Shown: piece by piece, positions 29,325-63,974 of the stretch
Numbering within the stretch: the first letter of the stretch is position 1
Layout: every line of letters starts with the position of its first letter
From: Escherichia coli
Lineage (GTDB): Bacteria > Pseudomonadota > Gammaproteobacteria > Enterobacterales > Enterobacteriaceae
Assembly (NCBI RefSeq): GCF_030384885.1
Contig: NZ_CP128613.1
Reading direction: 5' to 3' (one strand)
DNA: 64,000 bases
The notes under the pieces: model-generated
What the model was told of the DNA's origin: nothing
Seen by the model: only the letters and a program-made list of their open reading frames with translations
Database searches by the model: none
Position numbers and translations under genes: made by a program

Positions 29325-29391
29325 AGGAAAACGTTTCCGCTTATCCTTTGTGTCCGGCAAAAACATCCCTTCAGCCGGAGCATAGAGATTA
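29325..29391 (+). promoter_or_regulatory. pyrC: pyrC control region: PurR-type operator palindrome and leader hairpin near the SD
   Basis: Palindrome AGGAAAACGTTTCCGC at 29325..29340; downstream TCCGGC-N15-GCCGGA inverted repeat just 5' of the GGAG/ATG. Confidence 0.65.
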
Positions 29392-47595: not shown

Positions 47596-48051
47596 TTAAC
47601 GTTGTGTCACGCGAATAGCCATTTGCGACTGTCTCTGCACTACAATTGCCGTTTTTTGAGTACCATACTGTGTAATATTTGCTTTATTACCAGAACCTTT
47701 CTGGATAATCATCGCAGTATTACCATAAGCACCTTGCGAAATACTGGCATCGTTGGCATTGCCCGCCTGATCAATATATGCAAGGTTATAATCTCCTGTC
47801 TGGTCAATCTTTGCCCGGTTGCTACTACCTTCTTGCGCAACAACCGCCAAAAGTTTTGAGCCTCCCTGCCGTAACTGAGCACTATTATTAGTCCCAGCTT
47901 GACCAATTATGGCTGCCTGATTAAATGAAGACTTACTCAATTCATTTACCGCGAAGTTATATTCTGAATTAGCTAAATCATAACCTGCTGCGGCTGCAAT
48001 CCCAGGCGCACCCAGTATTGTTAACATCATAAATAACAATTTGTTTTTCAT
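47596..48051 (-). CDS. csgB: curli nucleator CsgB
   Basis: ORF 47596..48078; start placed at MKNKLLFMMLTILGAPGIAAA to give 151 aa. Confidence 0.95.
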   Translation of the reverse strand: MKNKLLFMMLTILGAPGIAAAAGYDLANSEYNFAVNELSKSSFNQAAIIGQAGTNNSAQLRQGGSKLLAVVAQEGSSNRAKIDQTGDYNLAYIDQAGNANDASISQGAYGNTAMIIQKGSGNKANITQYGTQKTAIVVQRQSQMAIRVTQR

Positions 48052-48805
48052 GTTGTCACCCTGGACCTGGTCGTACATTTAAGAAATTAAATCATTTCAA
48101 CTTGGTTGTTAACGCAACCTGTATTTTGTTAACGCTGCGTTACGATGGAAAGTATGTCTGCGGAAATATTTTTAATAACTCACCCGCGCGTTGTATTTTT
48201 CTTTTTTTGTTCATACCAAAGTATTAAAACCCACGTAAATACGCTGTTATCTACGCAAAAAAATATTTTGTTTTCTTTTAAATTTCGGTTTTCCGCAATC
48301 AAAAATCACCAGACAGTCATTCTTCTTGCCCGTCGCTGATTGCTGCGATATGTCTTGCGCACAAGCCGTGACAAACCTCGTCTTTTTGCAGTAAAAAATT
48401 GTCCACGGAGGTGTGGAGAAAAAACAAGAACGTTTTACATGACGAAAGGACTACACCGAAATATTTTTTATATGCATTATTAGCAAGTTAGCACCATTTG
48501 TATGATTTTTTAAAATTGTGCAAGAAAAACCAAATGTACAACTTTTCTATCATTTCTAAACTTAATAAAACCTTAAGATTAACATTTTAATATAACGAGT
48601 TACATTTAGTTACATGTTTAACACTTGATTTAAGATTTGTAATGGCTAGATTGAAATCAGATGTAATCCATTAGTTTTATATTTTACCCATTTAGGGCTG
48701 ATTTATTACTACACACAGCAGTGCAACATCTGTCAGTACTTCTGGTGCTTCTATTTTAGAGGCAGCTGTCAGGTGTGCGATCAATAAAAAAAGCGGGGTT
48801 TCATC
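48052..48805. promoter_or_regulatory. csgBAC / csgDEFG divergent intergenic control region
   Basis: 754-bp AT-rich non-coding gap with no ORF of 60 codons or more; known to carry both curli promoters and the long csgD 5' UTR. Confidence 0.85.
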
Positions 48806-49456
<651 letters not shown>

Positions 49457-54338: not shown

Positions 54339-54426
54339 ACGACAATTTGGTGAGGTGTCCGAGTGGCTGAAGGAGCACGCCTGGAAAGTGTGTATACGGC
54401 AACGTATCGGGGGTTCGAATCCCCCC
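54339..54426 (+). tRNA. serX: tRNA-Ser (anticodon GGA)
   Basis: GGTGAGGTGTCCGAGTGGCTGAAGGAGCACGCCTGGAAAGTGTGTATACGGCAACGTATCGGGGGTTCGAATCCCCCCCTCACCGCCA: acceptor stem, long variable arm, GGTTCGAATCC T-loop and encoded CCA. Confidence 0.92.
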
Positions 54427-54527
54427 CTCACCGCCATCTTTAAAGAAGAGCTCGTACGAAAGTACGGGCTTTTTTTTCGTATATTGCACACACCGGGGGG
54501 ATGAGAAGCCCCGACAGGGGTTCGACA
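54408..54527 (+). repeat. direct repeat copy 1 (tRNA 3' end + terminator + about 70 bp)
   Basis: AATCCCCCCCTCACCGCCATCTTTAAAGAAGAGCTCGTACGAAAGTACGGGCTTTTTTTTCGTATATTGCACACACCGGGGGGATGAGAAGCCCCGACAGGGGTTCGACAACTGGCGACA. Confidence 0.9.
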
Positions 54528-54588
54528 ACTGGCGACAGCCAGTTGGACAGACCGTGAACGCAGTGAGCGGGCTGCCCGCAGGGCGAGC

Positions 54589-54707
54589 GAAGCGAGTCAA
54601 TCCCCCCCTCACCGCCATCTTTAAAGAAGAGCTCGTACGAAGGTACGGGCTTTTTTTTCGTATATTGCACACACCGGGGGATGAAAAGCCCCGACCGGGG
54701 TTCGACA
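54589..54707 (+). repeat. direct repeat copy 2 (about 96% identical to copy 1, 61-bp spacer between copies)
   Basis: Same sequence as copy 1 with four differences (GAAAGT to GAAGGT, one G fewer in the G-run, GAGAAG to GAAAAG, GACAGG to GACCGG). Confidence 0.9.
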
Positions 54708-54720
54708 ACTGGCGACAAAC

Positions 54721-56088
54721 TCAATCATCATCCTTGCAGTTGATAAGAATTTCTGCCTCTTTTACAACTATCTTATTACGTCCGGTTTCTTTCGCTTCAT
54801 ATAGTGCATTATCAGCCATTCGATAGATTTCATTCGGATTTAACGCACTTCCCTGAGTCACCACAGCGCCAATGCTAATCGTCACTTTTTGCGGTATGGC
54901 GTATTCAGGATTATCGCCTGTCAAACGCTCTACATTTGCCCTTATCCTTTCGGCTAAAACTTTCGCGCTTTCAGTATCGGTCTCCGTCAGCAAGACGCCA
55001 AACTCTTCGCCGCCAACGCGTGCTAAAAGGTCATTTGGTCGTATGCTTTTCCCAATGATGCTCACCACTGTTTTTATCACCTGATCGCCAACCGGATGCC
55101 CCCACGTATCGTTAACTTTTTTAAAGTGATCGATATCCATAATCATGACACAATAAGACGTTTTTTGGGCTGATGCTGATTGAGCCTTCAGTTCATTGAA
55201 AAAATAATTCCTGTTAAATATATTAGTTAATGGATCGCGATGGGCAATGTTCTTTGTTACTCGTAGCGCACTGAAAATATGGCACATAAATATTACCATA
55301 ACGGTTAATTTACTGACTACTTCAATAGTGCGGCTAATATACCAAGTGGACACACTATACCTGCTCATAAATAACAGAGAGATATTATACAGCACGGCAC
55401 AGAAAGCAATCACTGATACTCCATTCCAGATATCACAGCGTAAACCATTAAAGTATAGATTAACCAAAAGCAAGATTAACCACATGAAAATCATTATGGT
55501 AACATATGAGGTTTTCCAGACTACCTGACCATTTTCATTTGTTAACTCGGCAATATGTAAACTGTAGTCATCATAATGACTACTTAGCATGTGAGCAACT
55601 GCCGCCCCCCCAAAAATAAAAAATAGACTTATACACAATGTCATTTTTTTGGAAAAAAAACAGCGTTTCTTATTGTTTTCACTAACTTTATTCACCAGCG
55701 CTAGCAATATTAACATGCACAAACTCATCTGACGAAACAAATAATAAATTGCAATATCATTTTGTACAACGCTGCTTATCAAATGCCCCTCAATAAATTG
55801 CTGAATGATAATGACAGTTTTAACAAAGTAAATCAAACAACTCAGAAACGCTAAACTAAGTATGCAGTTTGAAAATTGGACACGATCATAAATGAAATAC
55901 AATTGCATGAAAATAAATGCAACGGTATCGATAAAAAATAAAGCAATCATAACCATTAGATAGGTTGATCGTGGAACAACCTCCTCAACGGTTGGCTGAT
56001 TAAACCAACTATTTACCAAAACGAATGCAAGCCCAAACAATAAGCTCACCAATACAGTACTACTAATTCCCAAATAGTCTTTTTCCAT
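54721..56088 (-). CDS. dgcT: diguanylate cyclase DgcT (YcdT), membrane MASE-type sensor + GGDEF
   Basis: ORF 54721..56178 (485 aa) with multi-TM N-terminal region and C-terminal GGEEF motif (RVGGEEFGVLL); start placed at internal MEKDYL. Confidence 0.85.
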   Translation of the reverse strand: MEKDYLGISSTVLVSLLFGLAFVLVNSWFNQPTVEEVVPRSTYLMVMIALFFIDTVAFIFMQLYFIYDRVQFSNCILSLAFLSCLIYFVKTVIIIQQFIEGHLISSVVQNDIAIYYLFRQMSLCMLILLALVNKVSENNKKRCFFSKKMTLCISLFFIFGGAAVAHMLSSHYDDYSLHIAELTNENGQVVWKTSYVTIMIFMWLILLLVNLYFNGLRCDIWNGVSVIAFCAVLYNISLLFMSRYSVSTWYISRTIEVVSKLTVMVIFMCHIFSALRVTKNIAHRDPLTNIFNRNYFFNELKAQSASAQKTSYCVMIMDIDHFKKVNDTWGHPVGDQVIKTVVSIIGKSIRPNDLLARVGGEEFGVLLTETDTESAKVLAERIRANVERLTGDNPEYAIPQKVTISIGAVVTQGSALNPNEIYRMADNALYEAKETGRNKIVVKEAEILINCKDDD

Positions 56089-56439
56089 AAAGCTACACCA
56101 ATCTGTAGGTTGTAGATCCCTTTCTGTCACTAATAGATATAAGAACTGTACTGTTGTCAATATAAAAATCCACCACAAACAATACCAATGATGATAGTTG
56201 CAGACCGCAATTATTATTACCTTAGTGCTTTATACATTCTTCGCGACAAGACAGGCTTGCAAATACATATAAATGGTTATAAGGAAATCCTTATAAAACA
56301 TTAATTCATAGATATATTAGGAATAACAATTGAATCCGTGAGTACAGTAACGCTGCATTTCATCAGGACTTTCGAAAAATCCGATATCATGCATCGGAAT
56401 TTACTGATTTAATTATTTTAATCCTAATTTATTTTGAAA

Positions 56440-62909: not shown

Positions 62910-63974
62910 TTAACTGTATGCATGTAGCGTACGTTGGCAAAGTGCCGAACGTACGCAATCCTCTTTACCGAATCGGACGATCCCGACCATTTCATCCTCT
63001 TCGAAACGTTCCAGCGCGTCACTTAATCCGGAGCGCACGCCGCGAGGCAAATCGCATTGCGTGATATCACCGTTGACGATAACCGTCACGTTCTCCCCGA
63101 GGCGGGTTAAAAACATTTTCATTTGCGCGGCAGTCACATTCTGCGCCTCGTCAAGAATGACGACTGCATTTTCAAAGGTACGTCCACGCATATAGGCGAA
63201 CGGCGCAATTTCCACCTTCCCTATTTCCGGTCGCAGGCAGTACTGCATAAAGGAAGCCCCTAAGCGACGGACCAGCACGTCGTAGACCGGGCGAAAATAG
63301 GGAGCAAACTTTTCTGCGATATCACCAGGTAAGAAACCTAGATCTTCATCGGCTTGCAGAACTGGACGGGTGACAATAATCCTGTCGACATCCTTATGTA
63401 TCAGGGCCTCTGCCGCTTTTGCGGCACTGATCCAGGTTTTTCCGCACCCGGCTTCGCCGGTGGCGAATATCAGCTGCTTACTCTCAATAGCCTTCAGATA
63501 GTGCAATTGCGCTTCATTTCGCGCGAGGATGGGCGAGGTATCGCGACTGTCGCGGGCCATACCAATGGCTTCTACGCCGCTCATCTGCACAAGCGAGGTG
63601 ACCGATTCTTCTTCACGCTGCTTATGGCTGCGCGAATCCCGTCTCAGCACACGTTTTGCCTCGCGACGAGCTTTGATCACTGCTTTTTGTCTTCCCATGG
63701 AGAGCACCTTGAGTTGTTTGTATTCATCACACGCGCCGTTGGCAGCGCGATTATGCGCACGAACATCAGAGGGTTGGCTTCCTTGTAAGCCATAGTTTGC
63801 TGTTGGATAAAATGCCGAAAAACGGCTACGCACACCGTTTGCGGCGTCGGTAACACATGAAAAGTAAGGAAGAATTTGAAAATGCAAAGTGACGAGATGA
63901 CTACCGGAGGAGAAATCTCCGCGAGTGGTGGAGCGTTGCTTAACAAAACATTGTCCAGTACAGGACGTTACCAT
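62910..63974 (-). CDS. phoH: PhoH, phosphate-starvation-inducible ATPase
   Basis: 354-aa ORF with Walker A GEAGCGKT and PhoH-family C-terminal domain; convergent with pgaD. Confidence 0.9.
   Translation of the reverse strand: MVTSCTGQCFVKQRSTTRGDFSSGSHLVTLHFQILPYFSCVTDAANGVRSRFSAFYPTANYGLQGSQPSDVRAHNRAANGACDEYKQLKVLSMGRQKAVIKARREAKRVLRRDSRSHKQREEESVTSLVQMSGVEAIGMARDSRDTSPILARNEAQLHYLKAIESKQLIFATGEAGCGKTWISAAKAAEALIHKDVDRIIVTRPVLQADEDLGFLPGDIAEKFAPYFRPVYDVLVRRLGASFMQYCLRPEIGKVEIAPFAYMRGRTFENAVVILDEAQNVTAAQMKMFLTRLGENVTVIVNGDITQCDLPRGVRSGLSDALERFEEDEMVGIVRFGKEDCVRSALCQRTLHAYS

Follow-up and report, generated by a model that had tools for sequence, protein, structure and literature searches.

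The best described counterpart of the locus studied here is the csgD-csgB intergenic region of Escherichia coli K-12 MG1655 (NC_000913.3, 1103197-1103950). Experiments in K-12 have described the gap between the two curli operons as a binding platform for OmpR, CpxR, MlrA, IHF, H-NS, RcsB, RcdA, CsgD and other proteins (PMC12388358, PMC3535384, PMC12713406), and the csgD leader transcribed from it is targeted by OmrA/B, McaS, RprA, GcvB, RydC and RybB together with Hfq (PMC4152358, PMC6061853). A gap length of 754 bp is also given in bioRxiv 10.64898/2026.04.22.719398 and PMC13304067, while the published lengths of the Salmonella gap conflict with each other (582 bp in PMC3913822 versus 754 bp in PMC13304067). 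Single-base changes in this region can shift curli expression (PMC13304067, PMC11278976).

We analyzed the copy of this region in a stretch of 64,000 nucleotides of an E. coli genome (contig NZ_CP128613.1), hereafter the window. The original prediction, made from the letters of the window, had described positions 48052-48805 as a hub for many transcription factors with a long csgD 5′ UTR that takes several Hfq-dependent sRNAs, and both parts of this description agree with the literature on the gap and on its 148-nt leader (PMC12388358, PMC3535384, PMC12713406; PMC4152358, PMC6061853). The gap has the same flanking genes, orientation and length of 754 bp as in MG1655. With a probability of about 0.97, 48052-48805 can be identified as the canonical region from which the two divergent E. 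coli curli operons are controlled; none of the evidence contradicts this identification, and flanking genes other than csgB and csgD are excluded. The region is already known and well studied, and there is nothing new in the copy of this strain.

Identity and Composition of the csgB-csgD Intergenic Region

The region and the two genes that border it are as follows.

47596..48051, minus strand, csgB coding sequence, first gene of csgBAC, from the ORF list and the annotation as curli minor subunit CsgB
48052..48805, csgB-csgD intergenic region, 754 bp, GC 0.345
48806..49456, plus strand, csgD coding sequence, first gene of csgDEFG, from the ORF list and the annotation

The sequence and the ORF list place the csgB start codon at complement(48049..48051) and the csgD ATG at 48806. 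Identical boundaries were observed in the RefSeq annotation of the two closest genomes, E. coli 2017-02-2CC and 2013C-4282, and both the ORFs and the RefSeq annotation give 48052-48805 a divergent csgB/csgD flank. The 754-bp intergenic region that had been predicted between divergent curli operons is thus exactly the csgB-csgD gap. Its predicted AT-richness and multiple A/T tracts were also confirmed, with a GC content of 34.5% versus 49.7% for the window and 12 runs of at least five A or T, which amount to 15.9 per kb versus 4.3 per kb in the window. The gap is the second most AT-rich 754-bp stretch in the window, behind 55612-56365. The claim that it is the largest ORF-free stretch holds for annotated genes, since the gaps that come next in size, upstream of pgaA and of rne, measure 633 and 572 bp, respectively, but it does not hold for mechanical ORFs, as ORFs of 30-64 aa overlap the gap. 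The most AT-rich stretch, 55612-56365 (GC 0.321), extends over the 633-bp gap that precedes pgaA and over the 5′ end of a GGDEF-domain gene, the former being another long biofilm-related regulatory gap.

Comparison with K-12 and Other E. coli Alleles

The alignment to MG1655 was free of gaps over 754/754 positions with an identity of 98.8%, leaving nine substitutions at window positions 48208, 48284, 48287, 48297, 48306, 48484, 48491, 48524 and 48578. When the csgD P1 start is set at 48658, from the 148-nt leader of PMC4152358, these correspond to -450, -374, -371, -361, -352, -174, -167, -134 and -80, respectively. From -79 to the csgD ATG the sequence is that of K-12 throughout, including the OmpR repeat, both core promoter hexamers (-35 and -10) and the entire leader, and the MlrA half-sites and the CsgD box are also identical between the two. 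The alignment to the K-12 csgD promoter and UTR that had been proposed as a check therefore shows no indel and a leader that is 100% identical, and the remark that nothing looks new fits a region of reference length with zero indels and an unchanged csgD leader.

Of 5426 complete E. coli genomes, 5371 carry the homologous region; four of the 5426 have exactly the allele of the window, and 99 genomes are at least 99% identical to it. Gap lengths of 752, 753 and 756 bp also occur among evenly sampled E. coli genomes, with O157:H7 having 753 bp, so indels of one or two bases are common in the species. The remaining 55 complete genomes have no match to the gap, about 42 others match less than 80% of its length (only 61 bp in S1-CAM-01-A), and six matches sit on plasmid-typed records. 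These absent, partial and plasmid matches may stem from deletion of the curli control region or its interruption by IS elements, or they may be quirks of assembly or labelling.

For a comparison across species, csgD loci were fetched from 80 species-representative genomes, and the gap could be delimited in 76 Enterobacteriaceae species, which were aligned. Over the first 25 kb the closest genome is E. coli 2013C-4282, which shows 11 differences from the window in the first 50 kb. One of them, position 48617 (about -41 of csgD P1), located shortly after the OmpR repeat and 8 bp before the -35 element, is T in the window and in K-12, and C in 2013C-4282; the column holds T in 60 of the 76 species, A in 16 and C in none. 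The C at this position might alter csgD expression in 2013C-4282, though not in the strain of the window.

Regulatory Elements and Their Conservation

The elements located between the two coding sequences, read from csgB towards csgD as far as the csgD core promoter, are listed below.

48052..48072, minus strand, last 21 nt of the csgB leader with the Shine-Dalgarno sequence (mRNA GACCAGGUCCAGGGUGACAAC-AUG), near-invariant in 76 species
48129..48141, conserved palindrome TAACGC-T-GCGTTA at the putative csgB start site
48151..48156, minus strand, putative csgB -10 element, CATACT on the csgB strand, conservation at least 0.9
48176..48186, minus strand, CsgD box CGGGTGAGTTA, perfect match to CGGGKGAKNKA, within a conserved block
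48230..48500, central spacer, mostly 0.1-0.5 identity per column across genera, length kept
48366..48388, small conserved island in the spacer, CGTGACA ... CTTTT(T), from the 76-species conservation
48512..48545, MlrA box AAAATTGTGCA-N12-TGTACAACTTT, from the motif scan
48599..48614, plus strand, OmpR direct repeat GTTACATTTAGTTACA, perfect GTTACA-N4-GTTACA, the same in K-12, conserved
48625..48652, plus strand, csgD P1 core promoter with -35 TTGATT at 48625-48630, a 16-bp spacer and -10 TAGATT at 48647-48652

On the csgB side, the blocks conserved among the 76 species are 48052-48072 and the csgB promoter region at about 48104-48223. The position of the putative -10 element would place the csgB start site near 48144. 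The CsgD box, whose consensus CGGGKGAKNKA reportedly comes from Zakikhany et al. 2010, overlaps the putative csgB -35 position, and a CsgD box that adjoins the csgB core promoter in this way would make csgBAC dependent on CsgD. A 15-nt match at 48129-48143 (GTAACGCAGCGTTAA) resembles the CpxR box (GTAAA-N5-GTAAA) with two mismatches and may be a CpxR box. A 10-nt direct repeat, TTGTTAACGC, occurs twice in the csgB promoter and leader, and the only other repeats of the gap are short imperfect inverted ones.

The conservation of two stretches on this side goes beyond the needs of a Shine-Dalgarno sequence. The last 19 nt of the csgB leader (CCAGGUCCAGGGUGACAAC on the mRNA) contain two adjacent CCWGG (Dcm) sites, and the repeat GCGTTAAC, present twice in the promoter and leader (48104-48146), holds the palindrome TAACGC-N-GCGTTA; both are near-invariant across about 20 genera. 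The CpxR-like box is one candidate that might explain this invariance. RNAalifold applied to the csgB leader of 25 species gave just three invariant pairs and no covariation, so a conserved RNA structure in this leader was rejected and the conserved blocks were taken as sequence elements. The leader also varies in length, being about 20 bp shorter in Escherichia sp. MOD1-EC7003, where the csgB ATG lies 109 bp from the CsgD box versus 129 bp; the gap of this genome, 733 bp, is the shortest among the Escherichia species.

On the csgD side, the conserved blocks are the MlrA box (48512-48545) and the stretch from the OmpR repeat over the -35 and -10 elements to the start (48599-48660). We take the OmpR repeat to be the activating site adjoining the -35 element. 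A palindromic MlrA box of 33/34 bp was found upstream of csgD P1 with both half-sites intact; the site is quoted as AAAGTTGTACA(12N)TGCACAATTTT in PMC3509220, which is the other strand of 48512-48545. Its 12-nt spacer includes position 48524, which is G in the window and T in K-12. The csgD P1 core promoter shows a conservation of at least 0.9 among the 76 species, and its position agrees with the 148-nt leader of PMC4152358. A scan for sigma-70-like promoters gave two matches in the gap versus a shuffle mean of 4.2 and missed the real csgD P1, while a simple terminator scan gave two terminator-like hairpins in the gap, both weak. Ahead of csgD P1, whose start lies near 48658, stand the OmpR repeat and the MlrA box, and farther upstream follows AT-rich curved DNA presumed to be bound by IHF, H-NS, CpxR, RcdA and others.

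Of the nine substitutions relative to K-12, five lie in the central spacer, which also takes in the initial RcdA binding site at -308 to -192 (PMC3535384). No exact match to the RcdA box TTGTNNACA was found in the gap of either the window or K-12, though RcdA footprints there (PMC3535384). The length of the gap is far better kept than the spacer sequence, with a median of 760 bp across the 76 species and a range of 733-802 bp in 74 of them, while two Kosakonia species, whose spacer is shorter by about 125 bp, have gaps of 586-589 bp. The MlrA box and the -10 element are exactly 110 bp apart in 70 of the 76 species, and the CsgD box lies 332-346 bp from the MlrA box in 74 of the 76, although most of these approximately 340 bp diverge at 0.1-0.5 identity. 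It is possible, if doubtful, that the length of the spacer and not its sequence is under selection, setting the geometry of an H-NS/IHF loop that couples both divergent promoters. Such coupling, if true, could explain the bimodal layer of csgBA control, independent of CsgD, that was reported in PMC12713406. Strict helical phasing is not supported, since the 14-bp spread is wider than one turn of the helix. The stable length fits an architectural role of this AT-rich, curved DNA, bent by IHF and bound by H-NS (PMC12713406), and the conserved gap length is not evidence for a new element.

The csgD Leader and the ES056 Match

The following features were located downstream of the csgD P1 start.

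48658..48805, plus strand, csgD 5′ untranslated leader, 148 nt, 100% identical to K-12, length from PMC4152358
48659..48750, plus strand, match to Rfam RF02752 ES056, 119.7 bits versus a gathering score of 43, model positions 1-92
48670..48697, plus strand, A/U-rich stretch (48670-48686) and stem-loop I (CCC at 48687-48689, GGG at 48695-48697), PMC6061853
48722..48779, plus strand, stem-loop II (SL1 of Mika and Hengge, -83 to -28), from folding and from PMC4152358 and PMC6061853
48796..48821, plus strand, stem-loop III (SL2, -10 to +16), with most of the Shine-Dalgarno sequence GCGGGG (48793-48798) and the AUG, PMC4152358

A single-sequence fold of the leader gave stem-loop II at 48722-48779 and stem-loop III at 48796-48820. 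The consensus fold obtained with RNAalifold on a 27-species alignment from about 20 genera recovered both, with compensatory changes in 12 of 26 pairs and in all eight apical pairs of stem-loop II. Stem-loop III, with the Shine-Dalgarno sequence and AUG, is essentially invariant, and the Shine-Dalgarno and ATG region is also a conserved block among the 76 species. The best conserved block of the leader in these species, 48711-48745, is the 5′ arm of stem-loop II, which carries the OmrA/B target (PMC4152358, PMC6061853). Stem-loop I (48687-48697) is absent from the 27-species RNAalifold consensus, though it covaries by eye, with CCC/GGG in Escherichia, CCUCC/GGAGG in Enterobacter and Lelliottia, and UCCCUU/AAGGGA in Leclercia. 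The 48687-48697 hairpin was rejected as a new element, as it is the stem-loop I of Andreassen et al. 2018 (PMC6061853). Together with the A/U-rich stretch, it forms an Hfq platform and the site of the cleavage induced by McaS, RprA and GcvB, which in the case of McaS needs RNase E (PMC6061853).

Base-pairing of the sRNAs, whose genes lie outside the window, with the leader of the window is implied, since the experiments used a K-12 leader of the same sequence (PMC4152358, PMC6061853). The original prediction had pointed to a pairing segment about 60-150 nt upstream of the csgD ATG; its identity to K-12 was verified, but the published sites are not confined to that interval. In the mechanism proposed here, csgD P1 would drive a 148-nt leader folded into three stem-loops, on which Hfq and OmrA/B, McaS, RprA, GcvB, RydC and RybB would act to block translation or bring about RNase E cleavage.

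The ES056 match corresponds to a 92-nt "novel intergenic" transcript from an RNA-seq survey, with its 5′ end 1 nt from a mapped start site (PMC4676190 Table 3, Rau et al. 2015). Rfam types ES056 as an sRNA gene, whereas its position is that of the first 92 nt of the csgD leader, which make up the 5′ two-thirds. Further Rfam matches above the gathering score were obtained elsewhere in the window, namely Ysr251 at 62915-63108 on the plus strand (188.7 bits), SraB at 5246-5414 on the minus strand, the RNase E 5′ UTR element at 7275-7611 on the plus strand and the PyrC leader at 29342-29391 on the plus strand. The window also contains a tRNA-Ser gene followed by an RtT sRNA region with a tandem duplication of about 120 bp (54349-54720), in which an indel of 1 bp relative to 2013C-4282 starts near 54608.

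Alternative Explanations

The ES056 match might also be read as an independent small-RNA gene nested in the gap. The strong score, the Rfam label "Gene; sRNA" and the discrete 92-nt transcript detected by RNA-seq (PMC4676190) favor such a gene; however, the 5′ end of ES056 lies 1 nt from the csgD P1 start, on the same strand and with the whole match inside the leader, and the novel transcripts of PMC4676190 were reported without a Rho-independent terminator. ES056 ends within the 5′ arm of the stem-loop II apical helix, by an A/U-rich loop, and its 3′ end is not preceded by a hairpin with a U-tract, all of which makes an independent gene quite improbable. ES056 is best read as a leader-derived fragment that arises, in the simplest view, when the csgD mRNA is processed or prematurely terminated, and the fragment could have a function of its own. 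It is far less likely still that unannotated small protein genes are hidden in the gap. The largest mechanical ORF there, 48145-48339 on the plus strand, has 64 aa and is one of eight that overlap it, and in 2013C-4282 the numbering of locus tags passes over RS07965 and RS07970 between csgB and csgD, where earlier annotations may have had calls. Yet the gap is without a gene in the current RefSeq annotation of three genomes, the two most widely open ORFs coincide with conserved promoter blocks, and the seven ORFs tested show frameshifts, early stops or lost starts in other Escherichia, Salmonella or Citrobacter; hidden small genes were rejected because each of the seven is broken or startless in at least one relative or consists of conserved promoter DNA. 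On NZ_CP027579.1 the tags jump from C6996_RS07960 (csgB) to RS07975 (csgD) with two missing, and similar skips occur at rluC-rne, dinI-bssS and mdoG-mdoC, which are probably features dropped by later annotation rounds. Hardly credible is an origin of the AT-rich gap as horizontally acquired DNA silenced by H-NS instead of an ancestral regulatory region. A GC content far under the window mean and the binding of H-NS from -201 to +28 (PMC12388358) would agree with acquisition, but the same gap with the same flanks, a similar length and conserved blocks was found in the 76 species from about 20 Enterobacteriaceae genera, and this synteny and conservation refute it.

The nine substitutions, especially 48484 and 48491 (-174 and -167) and 48524, might retune csgD transcription and give a strain-specific curli or rdar phenotype. 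Polymorphisms of the gap are reported to split temperature-dependent from semi-constitutive rdar isolates (bioRxiv 10.64898/2026.04.22.719398), and single-base promoter changes alter the Salmonella biofilm (PMC11278976, PMC6611641). Positions 48484 and 48491 lie within the region of reported IHF binding, 48524 lies within the MlrA box spacer, and the allele of the window is rare, being found in those four genomes. However, all nine substitutions fall at poorly conserved columns of the 76-species alignment, with a family-wide conservation of 0.07-0.55, and they leave the MlrA half-sites, the OmpR repeat, the core promoter and the leader untouched. Several sites, namely 48208, 48306 and, in part, 48491 and 48578, show in the window the base found in other Escherichia species, so K-12 has the derived allele there. 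Scanning with IUPAC consensus sequences for OmpR, MlrA, CsgD, CpxR, IHF and CRP gave the same matches in the window and in K-12, so that in the motif scan proposed with the original prediction the matches are intact and none is gained or lost. Retuning by these substitutions is therefore considered unlikely. Given the K-12 length, the lack of any indel, the same core promoter and leader, and substitutions only at freely varying positions, we infer that the csgB-csgD region of this strain is functionally wild type.

Comparison with Known Systems

The gap decides the commitment to curli and matrix, and real indels or promoter changes in it would predict the biofilm behaviour of a strain. With no indel and with the core promoter and leader unchanged, the present strain should control its curli as in the K-12 model. 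The footprint across species offers a compact map of the bases that matter, with which the variants of other strains can be triaged.

The same architecture was observed in the Salmonella enterica csgD-csgB (agfD-agfB) region, which measures 760 bp in S. enterica subsp. diarizonae. Salmonella shares the conserved blocks of the csgB promoter, the MlrA box, the OmpR site, the core promoter and stem-loop II, but the identity over the gap is only about 64%, and its leader differs over the first 50 nt or so, as was also remarked in PMC12388358. The csgD 5′ UTR studied by Mika and Hengge 2014 (PMC4152358) and Andreassen et al. 2018 (PMC6061853) has a K-12 sequence identical to that of the window. The three-hairpin leader is already described in these works, and the present data just widen the species sampling, from the seven species aligned in PMC6061853 to 27 species of about 20 genera.
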